IMG/VR virus record: IMGVR_UViG_3300010163_001518
Location: 8,671-72,670 of that record
Strand: one strand, 5' to 3'
From: a virus
Taxonomy: Duplodnaviria > Caudoviricetes
DNA: 64,000 nucleotides
Part shown: positions 1,826-25,550 of the stretch, in pieces
Layout: the number at the start of each line of letters is the position of its first letter
How positions within the stretch are numbered: the first letter of the stretch is position 1
Program-made: the position numbers and the translations under genes
Notes under the pieces: generated by a model
The model's input: only the letters and a program-made list of their open reading frames with translations
Told to the model about the DNA's origin: nothing
Database searches by the model: none

Positions 1826-2059
1826 TCAATCCGAGGAGAAAACCTCGGAGATCGCCCGGGCGACGATGTCCTGCTCAAGCTGCTGAATGAACCGTGCCTT
1901 CGCGAGGAAGTCCAGCAGCACGTCGAGGTCGTCGATCGCTTCGGGGTCAAATTGCTCTAAAAGAGGCGGGGGGACATAGCGGTATATCTCAAGAAGGGCG
2001 CTTTCTGCAAAGCTCTCCCTTATCCCCGCGACCTTCTCTCTTAGAGCTTCTTCAAATTT
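1826..2059 (-). CDS. -1 frameshift extension of tail chaperone (G-T type)
   Basis: A AAT TTG heptamer at 2053-2059; -1 frame open to TGA at 1826-1828. Confidence 0.7.
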   Translation of the reverse strand, partial: KFEEALREKVAGIRESFAESALLEIYRYVPPPLLEQFDPEAIDDLDVLLDFLAKARFIQQLEQDIVARAISEVFSSD

Positions 2060-2409
2060 ACATCATTCCCGAGGCCCAGCAGCTCGCCGAGCTTGTTCCC
2101 GATCGTGATGGAGATGCCGGGATATTCCTCCATGTCGGAAACGAGCCGATCGCGGTCTTCGTCAACGACGGAGTCGAGGATGAAGGTCTTGCTCGCCTTG
2201 GAAATGCCGATCTTGGACATCGTCTTCACGAAGCGGTCATACACGGGGATGCTGGGCCGCTTGAAGAAGTAGCTGATCTCCTGCTCGTTCTCGTCGTCGA
2301 CGGGAACGGTGACGCCGACCTTGTAGACCTTGCCGTATTTCTGCTTCATGGCCTCGGCGGCGTTGTCGGTGCCGGGGGCGGCGGTCTCGTTCTTCTTCAT
2401 GCCTTCCAT
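2041..2409 (-). CDS. Tail assembly chaperone
   Basis: 122 aa between tube and tape measure; ends at slippery AAATTTG. Confidence 0.8.
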   Translation of the reverse strand: MEGMKKNETAAPGTDNAAEAMKQKYGKVYKVGVTVPVDDENEQEISYFFKRPSIPVYDRFVKTMSKIGISKASKTFILDSVVDEDRDRLVSDMEEYPGISITIGNKLGELLGLGNDVNLKKL

Positions 2410-2458
2410 GTGTTAATACCTCCGTTTTTTCTCAAATTTCTTGAGTCGGCGCGGCCCG

Positions 2459-2893
2459 TCAAACGGGCTCGACGCCGTCCTCCACGATGCCGCCGACGAT
2501 CATGAGGTCGATGTCGACGGAGAGGGTCTTGTCGCCCTGCGCGGCCTTATGGCTGCGCTTGACAAAGACGACTCGCTTGAGCTCGTCGATGCGGGTGCGC
2601 CCGCCGGGGTTGGCGTAGGAGACGACCACGGAGGGGAACTCCACGCCGTAGAAGGGCTTTCCCGTGGCCTTGCAGTAGTCCAGGACGTCGTCGAAGTCGT
2701 CCCGGTGCATGGACATCTTGCCGGACGCCTTGTAGTTGCCCTTGCCGTAGCCCCGGGGCCTGCTGCCCTTGCCGTAGGACTCCTCCATCTCCTGCTCGTC
2801 GTCGTAGCTGATCTCCTGGACGATGAGGTTCAGGCCGGGGACTTTGACGTCTACATCGCCCCACCCGTAGCTGATACCGTTTACTTTAATCAT
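2459..2893 (-). CDS. Tail tube protein
   Basis: 144 aa after sheath; INGISYGWGDV start, ISYDDEQE...YGKG..PRGYGKGNY. Confidence 0.8.
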   Translation of the reverse strand: MIKVNGISYGWGDVDVKVPGLNLIVQEISYDDEQEMEESYGKGSRPRGYGKGNYKASGKMSMHRDDFDDVLDYCKATGKPFYGVEFPSVVVSYANPGGRTRIDELKRVVFVKRSHKAAQGDKTLSVDIDLMIVGGIVEDGVEPV

Positions 2894-2912
2894 GCGGCTC
2901 TACCTCCTTCCC

Positions 2913-4397
2913 TTACACGCTGGGCCGACGCCGGGCGAGGTCAATGTAGACCTCGCGGATGTAGCCCCGGGACAGATAGCGGATTTTCGTCCGCATGGTC
3001 TCGTCCTCGATGAAGGTCTCCTCATGCCCGTCCATGAGAATGATCTCGGCGGCGCTGATTTCCTTCGCGTCGATCATACGCTGCAAGGGCTCAAAGAGGA
3101 ATTTGCATCGGGTCTCGAGCTCGCCTTGAATGTCCTCGAGGTCGATGTCGTCGTTCATGAGGTCGAGGCCCTTCTTCCGGGTCTCCCGAATGATCTTGTT
3201 GAGAACGCGGACGTCTTCCGCATAGCGGTAGTCGCTGCCGTCCGGGGAGAGCATCTTCGTGTGGTAGACGAAGTAGTCGTCCTTCCCGTCGTACTCCCGG
3301 AAGGTGAGGAAGCCCGCAAGGTCGAGCAGCTCGATGATGGCGTTGTCCAGCTCCACGGGGAGCAGCTCCTCGAGCTTCGTCTTGCGGATGCCGAAGCCCG
3401 CCTCCTCCCGGGTCTTGCCGATGGAGGTCTGGACGCTGGACTTCGCATAGAGGCCGGAGACGAGGCCCGCAAGGTTGACGATCTTCGCCGAGCCGTCCAG
3501 CTTGACGAGACGGCCCCACGCGGCGACGACCTGGATGTTGTAGTTCCTCACCTTCTTCGCCTTCGCCTCCATCTCAAGGGCCCAGTCGGTGAGATCGCCC
3601 TCCTCGCCGCCGCCTCCGAGCACGGGGCCAGCGCCGCCGCCCTCGCTGGGCGTGGGGAACGCGGCCTCCATGACGAAAAACATCGGCTTGTGGTAGGTCT
3701 CGAATAGCTGCGTCTGCGCCTCTCCGACCGCTTGCCAAAGGGCGAGATCGCTCTCGCCGACGATGTGGACGAACTCATACTCCTCGGCGAAGTTTTGGAG
3801 CTTCGCGATGGCGTTGAGGACGTCCCCGTTCGTCATGGTGGGGGCGGTAGTGGTGAAGGTGTAGGAGTCGTTCACAATGAACGAGCTCGGCTTCTGGTCA
3901 TCCTCCGTCGCCTCGGTGAACTTGAGCTTGAGCCCCGTCCCCTCGATCTCATACTCGCCCGTCATAGGGACGGTGATCTCGTCGGTGAAGTTGCTCCCGC
4001 CGTCAATAGACAGCACAAAGGCGGCGGTATTCAGCCCGCCCTGGGCGGTGATCTTGACGACGACCGAGAAGGCGTTCGTCGGGGAGCCGTCGACCGCCAC
4101 GCTTCCGCTGCCGTCGCCCTTCTTAGAAACGCTTCCCATCTCGCCCGCCGTGGTGGCGGAGACCGGGAGGCAGTAGATGCGGTTCGCGCCGAACTGGACG
4201 GAGTCCATGACGGCGTCGGCGAGGGGAGACAGGCCGAGGCGGCTCTTGATCTGTGCCGCGTCCATGGCCCCAGTCACGACGATGGGGGTGTCGGAGACCA
4301 CGGGGGAGACGCCGATCTTGAGGTGACGCCCGTCGCCCGTGGCGGTGGCGAAGCCGAGGTTCTTGTCTGTGATATGGTGCTTGACGTCTCGAAGCAT
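2913..4397 (-). CDS. Tail sheath-like protein (DUF2586-type)
   Basis: MLRDVKHHITDKNLG start; C-terminal YAEDVRVLNK..R; precedes tube. Confidence 0.85.
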   Translation of the reverse strand: MLRDVKHHITDKNLGFATATGDGRHLKIGVSPVVSDTPIVVTGAMDAAQIKSRLGLSPLADAVMDSVQFGANRIYCLPVSATTAGEMGSVSKKGDGSGSVAVDGSPTNAFSVVVKITAQGGLNTAAFVLSIDGGSNFTDEITVPMTGEYEIEGTGLKLKFTEATEDDQKPSSFIVNDSYTFTTTAPTMTNGDVLNAIAKLQNFAEEYEFVHIVGESDLALWQAVGEAQTQLFETYHKPMFFVMEAAFPTPSEGGGAGPVLGGGGEEGDLTDWALEMEAKAKKVRNYNIQVVAAWGRLVKLDGSAKIVNLAGLVSGLYAKSSVQTSIGKTREEAGFGIRKTKLEELLPVELDNAIIELLDLAGFLTFREYDGKDDYFVYHTKMLSPDGSDYRYAEDVRVLNKIIRETRKKGLDLMNDDIDLEDIQGELETRCKFLFEPLQRMIDAKEISAAEIILMDGHEETFIEDETMRTKIRYLSRGYIREVYIDLARRRPSV

Positions 4398-8670: not shown

Positions 8671-9378
8671 TCATGGTGAGGGGTTCTCCTTTTCTCGGTT
8701 TTTGTATGCCTTTATAAGCGGCTCGGGGTAGCCTGTGAGGTCGGGGGAGAACTTCACCTTCGCCGGGTTGGTGCCGAAGTGAGGGTCGGGCGCGATCGCT
8801 GGAAACTTGTCCTCGACCGTGAGCCCCCGGGCCTCGACTTGCCGCTTCGAGAGGGTTCGCACGGTGCAGCGGCATCTAAAGCCGTTCGGGGGGAACCAGG
8901 TATTCCAGATCGGATGATCTGCCGGATAGACCCTCCCGTCCATCGCGAGATGGCTCGGGCGCGTGTGGGAGTCGTTGACGGCGTCGTACTGCCAGTAGGG
9001 GCGGAGCTTCATGACGCTCGGGTCTGTCATCTGCTCATAGTGCCCCACGTTGTAGGCCGTCTGTATGTTGGTACGGAAGATGAGGTCGGCTTGCAGCGGG
9101 TCGAGCCCCTCATATCCCTCGCTCTTGAGGAAGGCGTTTATATGGGAGCGGAACTCCGAGAAGGTATTCCCGTCTTCCAGGGCGGCGAGTATCTCGTCAT
9201 AGAACCGCTTGAGGATTTGCGCCTTCGTGTACCCGCTGACGGTGAAGGCGAGCCCCCGGTATTGCTCGGCGATGCTGTAGAAGACGTCCGCCGTGACCGG
9301 GACGCGGCCCTTGAAGTAGTCGACGGCCTCCTCGAAGGTCATGTCCTTCCGGGAGAATACGCTCTCAATGCCGTCCAT
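8671..9378 (-). CDS. Minor head protein (Mu gpF/SPP1 gp7-like)
   Basis: IFRTNIQTAY, YDAVNDSHTRPSH, PPNGFRCRC. Confidence 0.92.
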   Translation of the reverse strand: MDGIESVFSRKDMTFEEAVDYFKGRVPVTADVFYSIAEQYRGLAFTVSGYTKAQILKRFYDEILAALEDGNTFSEFRSHINAFLKSEGYEGLDPLQADLIFRTNIQTAYNVGHYEQMTDPSVMKLRPYWQYDAVNDSHTRPSHLAMDGRVYPADHPIWNTWFPPNGFRCRCTVRTLSKRQVEARGLTVEDKFPAIAPDPHFGTNPAKVKFSPDLTGYPEPLIKAYKNREKENPSP

Positions 9379-17684: not shown

Positions 17685-18254
17685 TTACACCTCATTTCCC
17701 CATACATCCCACCCGGGGGAATAGCGGCGGGCAAAGAGCTCGAGGCGGGGAACGTCCCCGAACAGGGCCTCGATGCGCCGCCGAACCTCCTCCGGCTTCT
17801 CGCTGTGCCGCGTCCTCACGGCCTCGACGAGCTGCTGGACGTTGTTCTGTTGCTTGTGCTTTACCATGTGCCCCCGCGTCCCCATGAGGCAAAGCTCGCA
17901 GTTCTTGAGCGTCCAGGGGGCGAGGTTCGTGACATTCTTCCCGGTGACGGTCTTCTTGCTCCATACGAAGGCGACCGTTACATATCGGAAGCCCCACGCC
18001 TTGAAAAGCTCGAGGGCGTCCGGGAGGTGGGCGTCGGTGGCCCACATAAAGAGGGCCGCGTCTTCGTCGGCGAGGCGTCCGACGTCCAGCGCCTTGAGGT
18101 CGGCGGTCGTCATCGTGGGATAGACCGCCTCGAGGGGGACGAAGCCCGAGCCCCCGTTCCGGGGCTCGAAGGCTTCCTTGCTGCTGAACTTCCACGGCGG
18201 GTCGACGTAAATGACCCGGTACTTGCGGTTTGTCTCGAAGATGTCGACCCGCAT
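17685..18254 (-). CDS. MT-A70-family DNA adenine methyltransferase
   Basis: IYVDPPW, LFMWAT, WGFRY, HSEKP, RLELFAR, WDVWGNE. Confidence 0.92.
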   Translation of the reverse strand: MRVDIFETNRKYRVIYVDPPWKFSSKEAFEPRNGGSGFVPLEAVYPTMTTADLKALDVGRLADEDAALFMWATDAHLPDALELFKAWGFRYVTVAFVWSKKTVTGKNVTNLAPWTLKNCELCLMGTRGHMVKHKQQNNVQQLVEAVRTRHSEKPEEVRRRIEALFGDVPRLELFARRYSPGWDVWGNEV

Positions 18255-18272: not shown

Positions 18273-18794
18273 TTACTCGCCGTTCTTGATCTGCTCGAGC
18301 CGGGCGAGGTTGAGGTCGTAGCCGAAGACGTCCTTCTGCTTCCAGGTAGCCCCCACGGCGTTGACGGTGTCCTCGCCGTACTTCTTGAGGGCCTCCTTGC
18401 TGACCTCCTCCTTGACGACGATGCAGTCGGTCATCTGCCGGGCCTTGAGCTTGCGGATGATCTCCTCGAGCTTCTCCTTCGCCCGGGGGAGGGAGATCGA
18501 CGTCGAGAGGCGGAAGCCCACCTCTCCGAAGGTGAGGGCCCTCGACTTCGTCTTCCCCATCTCGTCGCGGTGCTCGGTGACGAACTCCTTGATCTCGCGC
18601 TCGAGGGCGGTGATGCGGTCATTATAGGGCTTGCTCTGCTGCTCGGCTACGAGCTGCGCTCCGACGACTTGCTTCTGCATCTCGCTCTGGATGTCGCCGA
18701 GGGCGATCGTCGCCTCTGCGATCTGCCGGAGGGCGTCGTTCACGTCCTCCCAGGAGTGGAGGCTCGGGGCCTCGATAACGCGCTTTCTTGCCAT
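18273..18794 (-). CDS. gam: Host-nuclease inhibitor Gam
   Basis: SWEDVNDALRQI, KSRALTFGEVGFR; likely start MARKRVIEAP at 18794. Confidence 0.88.
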   Translation of the reverse strand: MARKRVIEAPSLHSWEDVNDALRQIAEATIALGDIQSEMQKQVVGAQLVAEQQSKPYNDRITALEREIKEFVTEHRDEMGKTKSRALTFGEVGFRLSTSISLPRAKEKLEEIIRKLKARQMTDCIVVKEEVSKEALKKYGEDTVNAVGATWKQKDVFGYDLNLARLEQIKNGE

Positions 18795-19029
18795 GGTGTG
18801 ACTCCTTCCTTGTCGTTTGGTGAGTATCTGCCTCCTCCTCTGTGACCTCTCCGTCGTAGAGGAGGTAGGTGTCCGAGTAGAGCATATAGAGGCCCAGCGG
18901 GCCCACGAGGAGGGCGGCGGTCGCGTCGTTGTCTTCCGGCTCCGGCCCTCCATAGGAGGCCAGCAGCAGCATGAGCCACGCGATCGCGATGAGGGCGACG
19001 CCCATGAGCCGCTGTTTTCTCATTTTCAT
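18622..19029 (-). CDS. Small membrane protein
   Basis: Two hydrophobic N-terminal segments; tail overlaps gam. Confidence 0.5.
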   Translation of the reverse strand: MKMRKQRLMGVALIAIAWLMLLLASYGGPEPEDNDATAALLVGPLGLYMLYSDTYLLYDGEVTEEEADTHQTTRKESHHGKKARYRGPEPPLLGGRERRPPADRRGDDRPRRHPERDAEASRRSAARSRAAEQAL

Positions 19030-19048: not shown

Positions 19049-20029
19049 TTAGAGCATCATGAGGCTCGAGGCTTGCTCGATCGTCTTGAGGGTGACGAGG
19101 TTCTCGCCCCTCTCCTCGAGGATGCGCTTGACGTTGGAGAGGGTACGGTCGAGGAGGCGGAAGCATCCAGTCTGCATATTACAGGCCCGGGCCTTGAGCT
19201 CGACCATGGCGTCGGGAGCGACCTCGAACTCGGAGACGTACTTCTCCACCTCCGAGGGTTCGAGCCCCTTGAGGGAGATGTAGAAGTCGACCCGGTTCGC
19301 CATGCGGGCGAGGTAGGTCTTGATCGCGGCCTCGAGCTTCGGCTCCCCGGCGATCACGACCCCGACGTCGCTCTGGTCGAAGATCGCCCGGAGTATCTCC
19401 ATCTTCTTCTGCGTGTACTTCGAGACGAGCTTGTCGGCCTCGTCGATAATGAGGAGGTAGCCCTTGTTCGTGTTGAAGAAGTCCCGGATGCCGTTGACCC
19501 TGCGCCAGATCGTCCCGTAGCCGCTCGGGATGCCGAGGGACTTCTCGATCGCCTCCACAAGATCGCGGCTGCTCATGGTGTCGTCACACTCGATATAGGC
19601 GACCCGGGGGAGCTTCGCGTAGTGCCGGAGGCTGTAGGTCTTCCCGTAGCCGCTCCGGGCGACCACGATGCCGAGGCCGATGTACTCTTGACAGGATTGA
19701 CACACGCCCAGGACGTTGACCGCGTCCCGCGTCTCGAGGAAGGAGGGCTTCCGCCCGGTCTTCCCGGGCCGCTCCGGGACGTCCACGGTCTCGCCCGTGC
19801 GCCGGGCCAGCCAGTCGGCGAGGAGGGCCTCGATGGTGGTGATGTCCCCCTCATACTTCCCCGCAAGATAGCGGGAGATCGTCGGGCGGGAGTAGCCGGG
19901 GATTTCGTTCGCGAGGGTGGCGATGCTCGTCCGCGTGGCGGCGAGGTATTCGTTGATCTGCTGGGCGAGAGGCTTGCCCTGGGTATAGGTGGCGGTCTGC
20001 TCCGCCGCTGCTGCTGTTCTGACTTCCAT
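19049..20029 (-). CDS. Transposition AAA+ ATPase (MuB-like)
   Basis: N-terminal HTH, ARSGYGKT Walker A, LLIIDEAD Walker B. Confidence 0.93.
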   Translation of the reverse strand: MEVRTAAAAEQTATYTQGKPLAQQINEYLAATRTSIATLANEIPGYSRPTISRYLAGKYEGDITTIEALLADWLARRTGETVDVPERPGKTGRKPSFLETRDAVNVLGVCQSCQEYIGLGIVVARSGYGKTYSLRHYAKLPRVAYIECDDTMSSRDLVEAIEKSLGIPSGYGTIWRRVNGIRDFFNTNKGYLLIIDEADKLVSKYTQKKMEILRAIFDQSDVGVVIAGEPKLEAAIKTYLARMANRVDFYISLKGLEPSEVEKYVSEFEVAPDAMVELKARACNMQTGCFRLLDRTLSNVKRILEERGENLVTLKTIEQASSLMML

Positions 20030-20039
20030 GATGTTCCTC

Positions 20040-22106
20040 CTATTCGTTCATGGCCCTCAAACGGGCGAGGGCGTCGTCTGCCTTCTTGCCGAGGAACTCG
20101 TCCCCGGACGCCTTCTTCTTGTGGGCCCGGCTTGTGGCCTCGGCCCTGTATTCCTTATCCAGCGGGAGCGAGATGCACTTCGAGGGCCGCTCGGCCTTGA
20201 TCGTCAAGTCGATCATGCCGACCGCCTCGGAGGGCCGTCCGCCCTCCTCCCCCCGGAGCTCATAGGGCCGCGTCATGCTGTCCAGTATCTCGCGCATTTC
20301 GCGCTCCTGCCGCTTCTGATCGCGGAGGTGCTTCTCAAGTGCCGCTTGCGAACAGTGGGGCCCGAAGGCCAGCAGCTCGGGGGAGACGGCCTCGCATATC
20401 TTCCGGCCCTCCTCGTCGAAGACGTAGAGCTTCGTCACGTCGTCGATGTCCCACTTCACGCCGACCGTCTTCCCGACGTAGTGCGAGAGCTCGTAGTCGG
20501 TGTAGACGGTGCCGAACTTGTTGATGCCGTAGTTGTAGACCCGGGCCGTCGCTGCCTTCATGAGCAGCATCGCGGCGTATTCCCTGGGCGGTGCGGCCTT
20601 CTCGTAGCGTTCGCCGTTCTCAAAGAGCTCGATCGGCGTGACCCACTTCTCGCCCGCATCCTTGAGGCCCCGGTGTTCCCGGGTGTGGTACTTTTCGTTC
20701 TTCCACTTCGTCCAAACCTCGAAGAACTCCTCCATCGTGAGCAGCTCCCCGCGCTCGAGCATGGCGTCGACGTCCTTCTGCCGCTTCGCGTAGGTCTTGG
20801 AGCCCGTGAGGGTTCCGACGTAGGACTCGAACCACTTCGAGAACTTGGAGCAGACCGTCCCGAAGAACCGCTCGATCGGTTTGTCCCACGGCTGATAGGG
20901 GAGCGACCGTCCGACCTCCTCGATGCCGATTGACTGATAGAAGCCCACGGTCTCGGCATCGAAGCTGAACTCGATGTTCCGCTTCTTCCGGCTCTGTCCC
21001 GTCATGGTCTGCGCCGTGTAGTCCTTGCCGTTGTCGACGTGGAGGATGTGGGGGACGCCGCCCGGGTGGGTGTAGATCATCTTGACGAGGCTCTCCTTCA
21101 AGGTCTGACTGTTGGCGTCTATACAAGCGACGTCGCCCACGATCGCCCGGCTCCTCATATCCAGCCACGCGACGAGCTTCGGGCGGACGGCCTTGATCTT
21201 GCCGTTCGGGGCCGTCCACTGTACCCAAAAATCGAAAGTGTGCTCGTCGCCGACGACGTACTCCATGACCTTGAGGCTCGTCGCATCCCGGCGTCCCTTG
21301 AGCATCATCTTGTTCTTCCACTCCCTCGAGCCGTTGGCGGCGAGGTAGCGGGCCGAGGCCGCGCCCCGGCTGTCCATGAGATACTTGACATACCGGGCGA
21401 CGGTCTTGATGCTCGGGAACTCCGCCCAGCCCCGGCCCTCTGCGATCTCCCCGAACTTCTCGTAGAGCATCTCGATCGTCCCGAGGTTGGCGGCGAAGCG
21501 GCGGTCGAACCATATATTCTCGATGACCGCCCGCTGCTCCGGCGTGAGGCTTGGGAAGGTGTCCTTCTCCCGGGGCTTCCTGCATAGGGACAGGGCCCGG
21601 AAGTAGTCCCGGTTCTGCCCGTCCTCCTTTTCCAGCTTGAGCGCCCAGGCGTTCGCCTTGAGGACGTTGTCGACGTAGCGGTAGAGGGTCGGGAGGCTCA
21701 CGCCCAGACCCAGCGCGTAGCGTTCGGCGTAGGCCGTGCGGTCGGGGCCGTCGTAGTCGATGAAGTCCTGGACGCGGGCCGCGAGCTCGACGGCCTCGTA
21801 GTATGCCTTCTTGTTCTGCTCGATGTAGTGATTGAGGTCGGCCCCGACATACCAGGGGGCCACGTCGGCTCTCTTGTCTATGATGACATCCCTCCCGTCT
21901 ACCTTCTGCGCGGCCTTCCACGCCTTGCGCCCCTTCGGGGAGAGGGAGGAGACGGAGATCATAACCTGATCTTTGCCGCCGCCCTCTCGGGGCTGTGTTT
22001 TGGTCTTGTATTGCTGCGGGTTGCGTTTCACGCGCTTTTGAAAAGTGTCGTATGCGACCCCCTCAAAGGTTGCGGCCTCCTCGAGACCGATGAACACGTC
22101 CGGCAC
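20040..22106 (-). CDS. DDE transposase (MuA-like)
   Basis: VGDEHTFD, HVDNGKDY, KPIERFF catalytic motifs; Mu-type C-terminal domain. Confidence 0.95.
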   Translation of the reverse strand: MPDVFIGLEEAATFEGVAYDTFQKRVKRNPQQYKTKTQPREGGGKDQVMISVSSLSPKGRKAWKAAQKVDGRDVIIDKRADVAPWYVGADLNHYIEQNKKAYYEAVELAARVQDFIDYDGPDRTAYAERYALGLGVSLPTLYRYVDNVLKANAWALKLEKEDGQNRDYFRALSLCRKPREKDTFPSLTPEQRAVIENIWFDRRFAANLGTIEMLYEKFGEIAEGRGWAEFPSIKTVARYVKYLMDSRGAASARYLAANGSREWKNKMMLKGRRDATSLKVMEYVVGDEHTFDFWVQWTAPNGKIKAVRPKLVAWLDMRSRAIVGDVACIDANSQTLKESLVKMIYTHPGGVPHILHVDNGKDYTAQTMTGQSRKKRNIEFSFDAETVGFYQSIGIEEVGRSLPYQPWDKPIERFFGTVCSKFSKWFESYVGTLTGSKTYAKRQKDVDAMLERGELLTMEEFFEVWTKWKNEKYHTREHRGLKDAGEKWVTPIELFENGERYEKAAPPREYAAMLLMKAATARVYNYGINKFGTVYTDYELSHYVGKTVGVKWDIDDVTKLYVFDEEGRKICEAVSPELLAFGPHCSQAALEKHLRDQKRQEREMREILDSMTRPYELRGEEGGRPSEAVGMIDLTIKAERPSKCISLPLDKEYRAEATSRAHKKKASGDEFLGKKADDALARLRAMNE

Positions 22107-22387: not shown

Positions 22388-22804
22388 CTACTTCCGGGCC
22401 ACGGCTCGGGCGAGGGCGACGCCCACGCCCACGAGCGCCGTCGCCTGGACGACGGGGTCGGGGAAGTTCAGCAGCACGGCGGCGGCGGCGAAGCCCAGCG
22501 CCGCCACGGCGGCGAGCCCGAAGACGATTGCCCCGTCCAGCAGCACGTCGGCGAACTTGACCGCCCGGCCCTTGAGCTTGAGCACGGCCTCGGCCCGTTT
22601 CCGGCGCTCCTCATTCTCAAGTAAATTGAGAACGAAGTCCGCCGCCGCGAGGTCGGCCTCCACCTTCTCAAACTGCGCCTCCCGTCCCGGGCGGGCCCGC
22701 ATGGGAGCCCGGGGGTCGCCGACCGCCCGCTTCTGCCGGAGCAACTCGAGCCGGAGCGACTCGGCCCAGGCCCGGGCCTCCTTCGTGGTGACGGCCTTGT
22801 TCAT
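22388..22804 (-). CDS. Hypothetical protein with C-terminal TM segments
   Basis: 138 aa co-oriented ORF. Confidence 0.6.
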   Translation of the reverse strand: MNKAVTTKEARAWAESLRLELLRQKRAVGDPRAPMRARPGREAQFEKVEADLAAADFVLNLLENEERRKRAEAVLKLKGRAVKFADVLLDGAIVFGLAAVAALGFAAAAVLLNFPDPVVQATALVGVGVALARAVARK

Positions 22805-24693
22805 GTCTGCCCTCCTTTCTGCGCTTGTGAGAGCCTTTTCTTTGTTACGGCTATAGGGAACTCCTCGATCTCACTCGCCCATAGACAGGTTTCGGGGCCG
22901 TTGAGCCGCTCCCATATCAGAGGAAAGCCCCCTATCCCGTCGAACAGGCTCGCCAGCGTCGGCGGGCGTCTATAGTAAGCAGAGAGCCGTCTTAATATCC
23001 ACGTCCACGGCGGGAGCGCGATGGAGTTGCCCAGGGCCTTGTATCGGGTGGTGTCGGAGCATTCCCGGGGCTTGCCCTTGCTGTCCACCCATGGGCCGAT
23101 GTCTGTCCACCCATCCGGGAAGCCTTGGAGGCGCTCGCACTCTAAAGGTGTCAGCCGGCGGATGACATCGCTTGTCTCGGGATCGACGATGATGTTCGCC
23201 TTTGTTGAGTCTCCTCCGCACGGAGTCCGCAACGTCGCACCGATGTCGCTCTCGTTCCACCATCCTGCGCCTGTGTTTTGAAAGGCCATGACAACGGGCT
23301 GCTCGTGATTGCAGTTGAGCGTCGGGGCAAGCCCCCGCATGATTTCTGTGTTCGCTTGCCCGGTCGCCATGATGAGCGGCGTATAGTCTGACACGCGGCC
23401 CGCGTGATCTCCGACAAGAGTACAAACGGTCTTTCCGTCGCCGTTTCCCCGGGCGTCATAGACGGCGGGAGTCTGCGCCGTGCAAAGCGTCGGGGACTTC
23501 TCGACGGTGTAATCAATTCCCGCTCCGGCTCCGGCCTGCCATTTGAACGTGGCACACACGACGGGTTGATGCCCGTGCTCTTGGGCCCGAAGCGTCCCCG
23601 CAAGCTCTACACACACATCCATAAACCGCCCGCCTTGATCGTTCACGCAAAAGAGAGTTTGGTCGTTGCTGCATTGGAGCGTCCCAGAGAGCTCCTCTTG
23701 AATTAGAGCCCCTTTTCCTCCTCCCGAACATCCACCGCGGACTCTAACCGTGAGCGCTCGAGAAGGGCTCGCTCGAGCTCGGGTGGCATCGGCTTTCCCC
23801 TCCTCCGAGATCGCCGGAGTATCCCCTTGCAAGCTCTCGCGCTCAAAGAGTATTTCGGGTGCGGTGAGTCCTCCAAAATCCACGACAAGCGCGATTCGAC
23901 GGCGACGTTGGGGGACTCCCCAAAACTGTGCATCAAGAACTCTGTAGGCAAGAGACCACCCGTCTCCATAGTAGGCGTCTGCCAGGGGCCAGCGACCCCG
24001 GGGAGGTAGTGGAACGTCGGGCGCGTCCGGTTCTGCGATACGGATTGTCTCCTCGAGGACGGCCTTAAAGTCCTCTCCTTTGTTGCTTGTGAAGGCTCCG
24101 GGCACGTTCTCCCACACCATGAACCGGGGGCGGATTTCTTGCCCCGTTCTGCCTCGTTTGATGTCTGCATCTCTAAGCTCCTTTACCAGTCTGATCTGCT
24201 CCATAAACAGGCCAGAACGGGCCCCGGAGAGCCCTTCCCGCTTTCCCGCGATGGACAGGTCTTGGCAGGGGCTCCCGCCGATGACCGCATCCACGGGCGG
24301 GGCGGTATAGCCAGATATGGAGGTAATGTCTCCCAGGTGTTTCATGTCTTCCTCCTTTTCGTGATCGCCTGGGTCGATAGCATCGGCGAGTCGGCTGAAC
24401 TGCTCCTCATACTGCCAACGAAGGGCGGAGGCCAGGCTCTCCTGCGTCATCCCCTCCACGGGGCCGAGGTTGGTGTAGTAGCCATTCACGAAGATGGCCC
24501 CCGGGTCTGTGGCGAGGATGGTCTTGATTTCCCGAACGTCGGCGGGGTCAAAGATGAACTCGTTGTTTTTGTCGATGTCGGGCCAGAAACAAGCGGCCTC
24601 CCATCCGCGCCCCTCCTTGTAGAGGGCAATCCAGGCGATGCCGTCCCGAGCTTCCTCGAGAACTTCCCGGGCTGTAGTTCTAAGACTTGCCAT
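22801..24693 (-). CDS. Circularly permuted C5-cytosine DNA methyltransferase with fused N-terminal domain
   Basis: GSPCQDLS (IV), WENVPG (VI), PQRRRR (VIII), RRLTPLECERLQGFP, YKALGNS (X); SLFDGIGG (I) and ASEIE (II) at the C-terminus; RBS-preceded ATGs at 24693 and 24345. Confidence 0.9.
   Translation of the reverse strand: MASLRTTAREVLEEARDGIAWIALYKEGRGWEAACFWPDIDKNNEFIFDPADVREIKTILATDPGAIFVNGYYTNLGPVEGMTQESLASALRWQYEEQFSRLADAIDPGDHEKEEDMKHLGDITSISGYTAPPVDAVIGGSPCQDLSIAGKREGLSGARSGLFMEQIRLVKELRDADIKRGRTGQEIRPRFMVWENVPGAFTSNKGEDFKAVLEETIRIAEPDAPDVPLPPRGRWPLADAYYGDGWSLAYRVLDAQFWGVPQRRRRIALVVDFGGLTAPEILFERESLQGDTPAISEEGKADATRARASPSRALTVRVRGGCSGGGKGALIQEELSGTLQCSNDQTLFCVNDQGGRFMDVCVELAGTLRAQEHGHQPVVCATFKWQAGAGAGIDYTVEKSPTLCTAQTPAVYDARGNGDGKTVCTLVGDHAGRVSDYTPLIMATGQANTEIMRGLAPTLNCNHEQPVVMAFQNTGAGWWNESDIGATLRTPCGGDSTKANIIVDPETSDVIRRLTPLECERLQGFPDGWTDIGPWVDSKGKPRECSDTTRYKALGNSIALPPWTWILRRLSAYYRRPPTLASLFDGIGGFPLIWERLNGPETCLWASEIEEFPIAVTKKRLSQAQKGGQT
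23703..24170 (-). CDS. Nested out-of-frame ORF, putative MTase beta subunit (M.EcoHK31I-like arrangement)
   Basis: AAGGAG 7 nt before ATG; LSWILEDSPHPKYSLSARACKGILRR resembles the L.DILE..KY.LS segment of C5 MTases. Confidence 0.7.
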   Translation of the reverse strand: MQTSNEAERGKKSAPGSWCGRTCPEPSQATKERTLRPSSRRQSVSQNRTRPTFHYLPGVAGPWQTPTMETGGLLPTEFLMHSFGESPNVAVESRLSWILEDSPHPKYSLSARACKGILRRSRRRGKPMPPELERALLERSRLESAVDVREEEKGL

Positions 24694-24722
24694 TTGCTGC
24701 TGCTCCTTCCTGTTGTGTGGTG

Positions 24723-24887
24723 TCAACCGACCGAGGCCGGGACGACTCCGATCTTGTCGGTGTGTTTGTGGAGGATGACGAGCTCGCCGTTCTGCTTCTG
24801 CTTGATGACGAGCCAGTTCTCCGGGGCAAGGCCCGCCTTGCCGAGCCTGATCTTCTGCTTCCGCGTGGGCTTCTTGCCGTTTCTCAT
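24723..24887 (-). CDS. Small basic protein, first early gene
   Basis: AAGGAGG RBS; MRNGKKPTRKQKIRL...PENWLV. Confidence 0.7.
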   Translation of the reverse strand: MRNGKKPTRKQKIRLGKAGLAPENWLVIKQKQNGELVILHKHTDKIGVVPASVG

Positions 24888-24969
24888 GCTGTGCCTCCTT
24901 TTCTGCTTCCCTTTTTGGGTGGGGTGTGGTATGCTGTGCTTGCTTAAAATTTTAATCTCACCATAGCCT

Positions 24970-24998
24970 ATTATATTTAACAAGTGAGGAATTGTCAA
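24970..24998 (-). promoter_or_regulatory. Early lytic promoter (Pe-like)
   Basis: Perfect TTGACA-17-TATAAT on minus strand; inverted 15-bp boxes at 24977-24991 and 25006-25020. Confidence 0.8.
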
Positions 24999-25046: not shown

Positions 25047-25550
25047 ATGGAAATTGTATTCTCGGATGTTGGATGCAGGATTGCGGGACGCATCAAAGAC
25101 CTCGGCCTCAAGCAGTTGGACATCTGCAATAAAACAGGGCTTTCGACCACGGCCTTGAGCCAATATTGCACGGGGAAAAGAGTCCCTGACACGGTATCGC
25201 TCTACAAAATCGCGACCGCCCTCGGCGTGTCGATGGAGTGGGTTTTAACGGGTGAGGATTTAACGGTCGAGGACGTGCGTGACGCCGCGCTCGATCTCGC
25301 CCAAATCAAAAAAGAACAGGGGCTCACCTGTGACGGGAGCCCCCTCGACAACATCGAAGCCGATCTTGTCGCCATGTTCCGGCTTCTGCCCCCGTCCCAT
25401 AGGGAGGAGGTGTTTGACCTCGTCTACTTCAAGTACAAGCGCCACATAGAAGGGGAAAAAGAGTCTATCTACTGGACGTATTCCGACGAGAGCAGCGACG
25501 AAGGAAGCGGCCCCGCCGAAGGCCATAAGACCCACGATGAGACCGCTTGA
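25047..25550 (+). CDS. Immunity repressor (XRE HTH, c-like)
   Basis: HTH in N-terminal half; divergent from early operon; AAGGAGG RBS. Confidence 0.85.
   Translation: MEIVFSDVGCRIAGRIKDLGLKQLDICNKTGLSTTALSQYCTGKRVPDTVSLYKIATALGVSMEWVLTGEDLTVEDVRDAALDLAQIKKEQGLTCDGSPLDNIEADLVAMFRLLPPSHREEVFDLVYFKYKRHIEGEKESIYWTYSDESSDEGSGPAEGHKTHDETA

Follow-up and report, generated by a model that had tools for sequence, protein, structure and literature searches.

Does the gene of a C5 cytosine methyltransferase (MTase) in a phage also encode, in another frame of the same bases, a second protein, and would that protein work together with the enzyme? The question is raised by a locus in a 64,000-nucleotide (nt) stretch of DNA from a virus of the Caudoviricetes (positions 8,671 to 72,670 of the 72.7-kb IMG/VR record IMGVR_UViG_3300010163_001518), which is referred to here as the window. 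On the minus strand of the window, the main open reading frame (ORF) at 22801-24726 completely encloses a second ORF, referred to here as N, that lies in the +1 frame of the MTase at 23703..24170 and consists of 155 codons plus a stop (start ATG at 24170-24168, stop TAA at 23705-23703). The Shine-Dalgarno (SD) sequence AAGGAG at 24178..24183 (minus), located 7 nt 5' of the ATG, is made by the host-frame K-E codons of a conserved I/V-K-E-M/L-R, and a +1-frame TAA read from the sequence at 24183..24185 (minus) closes the N frame upstream. This upstream stop is found at the same place in most homologs, and in most loci the stop-to-stop +1 frame begins 172 nt past the MTase start. An earlier inspection of the letters alone (the sequence-only reading) had claimed a 155-amino-acid (aa) same-strand ORF wholly within the MTase gene, preceded by AAGGAG 7 nt before its ATG, and both features are present as described, the latter at 24183-24178. 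The peptide that it had quoted, LSWILEDSPHPKYSLSARACKGILRR, does occur in the translation of N, and the main frame does lack a similar segment after motif VIII, where it reads IALVVDFGGLTAPEILFERESLQGD instead. Routine annotation misses N. The analyses described below lead us to conclude with high confidence that N is a real, selected and separately initiated overlapping gene. Long overlapping genes on the same strand with conservation across bacterial phyla are, to our knowledge, a great rarity except in small viruses.

A phmmer search with the 155-aa N against 1.8e9 representative proteins yielded 2488 matches at E<=1e-3, including 633 at E<=1e-10. Because these matches alone could be the shadow of a conserved host frame, 80 homologous loci were obtained as DNA from species-representative genomes, mostly of Clostridia and additionally of Heyndrickxia and Niallia, and the null was built from synonymous-codon shuffles of the host frame that kept each host protein and its codon usage. 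Interruptions of the frame in homologs, which would speak against the gene according to the sequence-only reading, were not found, as the +1 frame was open across the homologous stretch in 80 of the 80 loci. In the shuffle test, it was open over the homologous 110-183 codons in all of the 66 loci tested, while the shuffles led us to expect on average about 2.5 stops in this frame of the overlap, each locus having a probability of about 0.05 of being open. About 5 stops were present in the +1 frame of the 55 codons upstream of the overlap, and about 5.5 in the +2 frame within it. An ATG was found at the homologous place, about 15 codons 5' of a W.GKT motif, in 65 of 74 loci, and an SD-like purine run preceded the start in 55 of the 74; purine-rich host-frame K-E-M-R codons precede the homologous ATG.

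The codon alignment of 32 unbroken genes, used for the entropy and identity tests, revealed that the synonymous sites of the host frame were suppressed solely in the overlap, which was the check on synonymous variation that the sequence-only reading had proposed. For the host frame, the third-position entropy within the overlap amounted to 1.01 bits, compared to 1.49 and 1.47 either side of it, and in the columns with conserved amino acids it was 0.87 in the overlap and 1.39 outside (Mann-Whitney p 1.8e-7). It reached its minimum (0.52-0.65) at MTase codons 151-195, a variable stretch of the host protein. The mean pairwise identity in the +1 frame was 52%, compared to 26% when the synonymous codons were randomised, while the control regions of the gene showed +1-frame identities of 34 and 30 against null values of 30 and 28, respectively. 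All four N segments were above the null identity. Over the last 50 codons, the N frame was 68% identical, the host frame 48% and the null 22%; in the N-terminal part, the identity varied from 0.38 to 0.47, compared to null values of 0.25-0.30. The overlap is thus dual coding under selection. The explanation that N is a chance open frame whose conservation is only the shadow of the MTase frame has very little left to recommend it and was rejected by the open-frame, identity and segment tests: several motifs in the N-terminal part of N are indeed MTase motifs VI and VIII read directly in the +1 frame (W.GKT.PE from F-M-V-W-E-N-V-P-G and SFGESP from Q-F-W-G-V-P-Q), but the frame is open in every locus, its identity is twice that of the null, no comparable excess is seen in the control regions of these genes, and conservation over the last 50 codons is higher in the nested frame than in the host frame.

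The nested gene is not confined to the relatives that were used for these tests. With tblastn, the N of the window matched 48 records of GenBank phages, and the copy of N from Caulobacter phage DMCA matched 149. Unannotated nested +1 ORFs were found at 1324-1848 within the MTase coding sequence (CDS) at 1182-2858 of DMCA (L083), at 1474-1854 within the CDS at 1155-2582 of Streptococcus phage Javan422 (L084), and at 2222-2710 within the dmt CDS at 1921-4185 of coliphage P1 (L087). The P1 ORF corresponds to 66713-67201 of AF234172. These three ORFs are standalone with their own starts, and they lie in MTases whose motifs follow the ordinary order from I to X. In pneumophage MM1 (L086, DQ113772.1 7631-8056), the MTase orf13 is annotated as "alpha subunit", and orf14, which sits in its +1 frame, is annotated as "C5 methyltransferase beta subunit". 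MM1 is the sole annotated instance of the nested ORF among the records opened, and the nested gene had thus been noticed at least once before; the expectation that annotation pipelines would miss it was borne out by the records of P1, DMCA and Javan422. MM1 orf14 matched DMCA N at E 6e-15 and the N of the window, weakly, at E 2e-4. Between the window and DMCA, the C-terminal domain of N is about 60% identical, compared to about a quarter for the host frame on the same bases. The N of the window follows the pattern of the family, i.e., a +1 ORF over motifs VI-VIII that ends after the LS.ILE..KY.LS..AC.GILRRA..RGK.LP domain, and it contains all invariant columns of the alignment of this domain (A4). 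Given this breadth, the nested gene is old, and as it is present in MTases of both ordinary and circularly permuted order, it does not depend on the permutation. The clade with N is a large one of phage and mobile-element C5 MTase genes, in which both orders are represented.

The permuted order is that of the window itself. The host ORF at 22801-24726 (minus, 641 codons) matched the LPD15 domain in Pfam (PF18828, E 5.5e-26, aa 13-115; in-frame upstream part at 24346..24726, minus) and then, in four pieces, C5 cytosine MTases (PF00145, E 1.9e-33; TIGR00675, E 8.4e-34). The MTase part at 22801..24345 (minus), delimited by Pfam, motif order and homologs, contains motif IV (GGSPCQDLS, 24253-24279), motif VI (ENV, 24097-24114), motif VIII (QRRRR, 23896-23910), a variable region, motif IX (RRLTPLECERLQGFPDGW, 23107-23160), motif X (GNSIA, 23017-23031), motif I (LFDGIGGF, 22924-22950) and then motif II (ASEIE), all on the minus strand. 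Given this order, in which the cofactor-binding motifs are C-terminal, the host MTase is circularly permuted. The identification as a C5 MTase by the sequence-only reading therefore stands and is reworded here, on the basis of Pfam, as a circularly permuted MTase fused to LPD15. Its best database homologs are about 60% identical and have the motif order in common, and RRLTPLECERLQGFPDGW and GNSIA are invariant in the homolog alignment (A2). We noticed that most homologs do not have the upstream LPD15 part and begin at the internal Met of MKHLGDIT, which corresponds to 24345 in the window and has its own AAGGAGG there. Thus, the main frame may yield two isoforms, one fused to LPD15 and the other starting from the internal Met at 24345.

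If N is a gene, what does its product do? The reading that we favour, with moderate confidence, is that N is a partner of the MTase. It would be produced from the MTase mRNA through initiation at an internal site and would act with the enzyme as a small partner chain, whose helical domain is proposed to dock where the catalytic domain meets the target-recognition region; a similar-looking segment is present there in the main chain of many other C5 MTases. The enzyme of the window is the one-chain form, in which the catalytic half is fused to the half with the target-recognition domain (TRD) and motifs IX, X, I and II, with N as a separate 155-aa protein; in some relatives, the alternative form is encoded by the same DNA and consists of the catalytic half alone and of N fused to the TRD-IX-X-I-II half.

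The partner role is preferred because this two-chain form has been maintained in the relatives L052 and L090 and because N was found exclusively inside C5 MTase genes in everything examined here. Many database proteins open with the N domain and continue in frame into the variable region and motifs IX, X, I and II, and motifs IV-VIII are missing from them. At the DNA level, the catalytic frame of such N-fused loci stops soon after motif VIII while the nested frame continues. Fusion of N to the TRD-IX-X-I-II half was found in L052, L076, L090, P0125 and others. In a set of 82 loci (the tally itself sums to 83), 65 were fused as in the window, 5 were N-fused, 11 had the frame broken elsewhere, and 2 had no C-terminal match and were unclassified. 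The junction is free of homopolymers in two N-fused lineages, L052/L090 and L076. L052 and L090 have a common junction and have diverged since, with ratios of nonsynonymous to synonymous substitution (dN/dS) of 0.06 for the catalytic ORF upstream of the overlap (dS 0.94), 0.22 for the part downstream of the overlap (dS 0.51) and 0.19 for the host frame inside the overlap (dS 0.22). Both chains are therefore under purifying selection, and the two-chain form with N covalently attached to the TRD half is a working arrangement of which N is physically a part. Its split lies at a position at which C5 MTases complement efficiently (PMC5944983).

The predicted structure of N divides the protein into two parts. 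AlphaFold2, run with a 62-sequence alignment, predicted three helices for residues 94-155, with a predicted local distance difference test (pLDDT) score of 85-96, while residues 1-93 were predicted with low confidence (pLDDT about 46-59) and would be extended or disordered when alone. The helical domain (23706..23891, minus) is the best-conserved part of the overlap, with the consensus LS.ILE..P.PKY.LS..AC.GILRRA..RGK.LP..L..AL in A4, and it is encoded where the host frame is the variable linker after motif VIII. The N-terminal 93 residues (23892..24170, minus) overlap MTase motifs VI-VIII. No Pfam DNA_methylase match to N was found at E<=1, and the matches of a PDB search with the profile A1 were confined to the MTase parts of its long rows. 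Foldseek against PDB together with VIA-align gave only generic two-helix matches to the N model (Z <= 5.6), and the matches in the ESM Atlas were limited to small clusters of unnamed 'hypothetical proteins'.

We also noticed that a beta-clamp-binding-like motif, Q[LVIM][STD][LIMFW]F, was present in 20 of the 67 distinct N-termini of N in relatives, compared to 0.02 expected from shuffling. Its forms QVSLF, QLSLF and QISLF were found at about residues 6-12 of N (L003-L082; e.g., L006:3186, L019:3182 and L051:1650). The N of the window has no such motif: the host-frame peptide GRTGQEIRPRF is kept there, and its +1 reading has changed.

Several observations weigh against N being a partner of the enzyme. 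With all ten C5 motifs present, the main chain lacks nothing canonical. No family match to N was found in Pfam, NCBIfam or PHROGs, and a PDB sequence search with its C-terminal 66 aa gave nothing at E<=10. The sequence-only reading had likened LSWILEDSPHPKYSLSARACKGILRR to the L.DILE..KY.LS segment of C5 MTases, and this resemblance is weakly supported: the single best hhalign alignment of A4 to Escherichia coli Dcm falls on Dcm 308-337, the very segment after motif VIII to which that reading referred, with an E-value of 0.045 and a probability of 1%. The similarity of N to main-chain segments of other MTases is therefore non-significant and serves as a lead only. The AlphaFold2 model of a natural N-fused protein (the L052 ORF, with alignment A3) was of poor quality (mean pLDDT 55) and showed no docking. 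It should also be noted that the N-fused forms arise in place, through shifts of frame that in several cases are located at hypermutable homopolymer tracts, and such an origin is weaker 'Rosetta-stone' evidence than the fusion of unlinked genes.

These frame changes are the basis of another explanation, in which the +1 frame is an alternative module that is expressed only via frame shifts of the ribosome, the polymerase or the tract length, yielding products with a catalytic N-terminus and the C-terminus of N, or with N and the TRD half, while the standalone ORF of the window would be a by-product. In relatives, poly-G or poly-C tracts of 7-11 nt are found at or near the junction and decide which frame enters the TRD half, and all frame changes other than those of L052/L090 and L076 were located at homopolymers of 8-11 G or 9-11 C. 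Consistent with this explanation, tracts of at least 7 nt are about 7-fold denser in the MTase genes than in their flanks (0.345 compared to 0.049 per kb), and they concentrate near MTase codons 108-132 and 197-207, i.e., at the two ends of the strongly dual-coded part. Two pairs of loci are 100% identical except for the tract length: L026:3346 and L053:3346, identical over 1399 nt, have 8 G (in frame) and 9 G, respectively, and L044:3339 and L046:3339, identical over 1519 nt, have 11 G and 10 G. Other tract loci include L003:3602 (7 G, fused), L001:609 (8 G, N-fused), L041:3620 (11 G, N-fused) and L091:2860 in the MTase genes of relatives, and fused, N-fused and neither-frame states were all found. 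A poly-G tract is also carried by L033, from the isolate Gemmiger sp. An87. These differences probably reflect phase variation that toggles the gene among fused, N-fused and off, with the proviso that they were read from consensus sequences, in which homopolymer assembly errors are possible. Tract-dependent expression as the sole route to N is nevertheless improbable: the window and most other loci are tract-free yet keep the frame, the ATG and the SD sequence, and in the ordinary-order MTases of P1, DMCA and Javan422 the nested ORF likewise stands alone and has a start of its own.

In the window, no run of G or C of at least 7 nt was found in the MTase gene. At the junction (23703..23726, minus), N ends with CGGGAGGAGGAAAAGGGGCTCTAA and the host frame reads GGGKGAL; as CGGGAGGAGGAAAAGGGGCTCTAA has no tract, the window is fixed in the fused state and its N stands free. 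At GGGAGGAGGAAAAGGGG in the window, programmed ribosomal frameshifting was also weighed and set aside, as relatives show tract changes at the DNA level and the window keeps a standalone start and stop.

The explanation that competes most seriously with a partner role is that N is a real overlapping gene whose product is an independent accessory protein rather than a subunit required for methylation. N would then have been overprinted on the MTase gene and would serve, e.g., to tether the enzyme or another molecule to the replisome, in the regulation of expression or in counter-defence. Overprinting is common in phages, and predicted disorder is typical of overprinted proteins; two thirds of N are predicted to be disordered. 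The evidence of selection applies equally to an accessory protein and to a partner, and the completeness of the main chain (motifs I-X), the lack of a match of N to any known MTase model and the clamp-binding-like motif in the N-termini of relatives would all fit the former. The clamp-like motif is, however, absent from the copy in the window. Moreover, in all phyla and with either order of the motifs, N was found solely within C5 MTase genes, the part of it under the strongest constraint comes precisely after motif VIII, and lineages under purifying selection have kept N fused in frame to the TRD half. We therefore regard an accessory protein as a possible but less probable explanation than a partner of the MTase.

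A partner chain encoded within an MTase gene has a precedent. M.EcoHK31I of E. coli HK31 (YGGCCR) is a heterodimeric C5 MTase that needs its beta chain, which is encoded in another frame inside the gene of the alpha chain; motif IX is missing from alpha and is said to come from beta (Lee, Kam and Shaw 1995, as described in PMC2836561). The long N-terminal part of beta matters for association, with up to 67 residues being removable when the chains are tethered (PMC2836561), and, judging from the clone names M38 and C23, the beta chain would have about 23 kDa. In both M.EcoHK31I and the window, the second chain lies wholly inside the MTase gene in an alternative frame, beta and N both have a long N-terminal part, and by this estimate beta is of the same size class as N, which has about 17 kDa. 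In contrast to M.EcoHK31I alpha, the main chain of the window has motif IX and all the others, and N has no recognised motif; the host gene of the window, unlike that of M.EcoHK31I, is circularly permuted and fused to LPD15. The parallel that the sequence-only reading had drawn thus holds for the nested-frame layout and fails for the missing motif, as motifs I-X are present in the main chain. N is thus only a candidate member of the EcoHK31I family, with the 'beta subunit' annotation of its MM1 homolog as an indirect hint.

A closer likeness is found with MM1, in which orf14 is nested in the +1 frame of orf13 and is homologous to DMCA N and weakly to the N of the window. Unlike the MTase of the window, that of MM1 follows the ordinary order of motifs and is a member of a more classical subfamily (ENVKG, QNRER), and its nested protein ends right after RYFLS, without most of the GILRRA..RGK..LP helices of the window type. 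The system of the window would work like a two-chain dual-coded MTase, and its N is a member of the widespread nested-gene family that is annotated in MM1. Full-text literature searches for an overlapping gene in C5 MTases yielded nothing specific.

The N-fused relatives resemble the C5 MTases that are bisected naturally or artificially (M.AquI and the split M.HhaI, M.SssI and M.MpeI) in forming a putative two-chain enzyme that is divided at a position of efficient complementation. They differ from these in that the chains are read in different frames from the same DNA over about 140 codons and the second chain opens with the N domain; the window itself is unsplit. With regard to the host gene and not to N, the engineered 'Type B' permutants cp62M.MpeI and cp58M.SssI are fully active, and this topology is apparently absent from natural C5 MTases (PMC5944983). 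As in these permutants, the N-terminus of the host MTase lies between motifs II and III and motifs I-II are C-terminal; unlike them, the permutant of the window is natural, and all of its approximately 120 best homologs are alike in this respect.

The tract-bearing relatives, in which poly-G tracts of 8-11 nt lie inside the gene and loci may differ in tract length alone, also resemble phase-variable MTases with homopolymer tracts (phasevarions); the gene of the window, unlike these, has no tract. A further difference from the simple on/off switching of phasevarions is that, given two open frames, two of the three tract phases give long products, i.e., fused or N-fused ones. Tentatively, thousands of C5 MTases of phages, prophages and conjugative elements, including P1 Dmt, could be two-protein enzymes, with hypermutable poly-G tracts at both ends of the dual-coded segment acting in many lineages as a three-state switch among the one-chain form, the two-chain form of catalytic half and N-TRD half, and off. 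Such tracts would possibly represent a new kind of phase variation, which swaps protein architectures and goes beyond off-switching.

C5 MTases are among the commonest counter-restriction genes of phages. If N is a subunit, their heterologous expression, the assignment of their specificity (of the REBASE type) and their engineering would have been carried out unaware of two proteins, and host-silent changes, such as those of codon optimisation, would unknowingly destroy the second one. The case can be tested in tractable systems, e.g., P1 dmt.

In the window, the LPD15-MTase gene (22801-24726, minus) comes second in the early leftward operon of a Mu-like prophage, after a DUF6906 gene at 24723-24998 and with a divergent helix-turn-helix repressor at 25047-25550 (plus) upstream. 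Further along the operon are the genes for a MuA-like transposase (20040-22106), a MuB-like ATPase (19049-20029), Gam (18273-18953) and an MT-A70 adenine MTase (17685-18254, minus). Given that the MT-A70 gene is located in the same operon, the phage has two DNA MTases of different chemistry.

The variable region of the host MTase, which extends from GGGKGAL to motif IX within 22801-23700 (minus), is very different in length among the homologs (proteins of 430-620 aa). It apparently consists of repeated cassettes (GTLRAQ.HGHQP, AGFK..AGA..IGY, ARGNGDGK and PTLNC.HEQP), and this cassette-like appearance is reminiscent of the multispecific phage MTases with several target-recognition modules.

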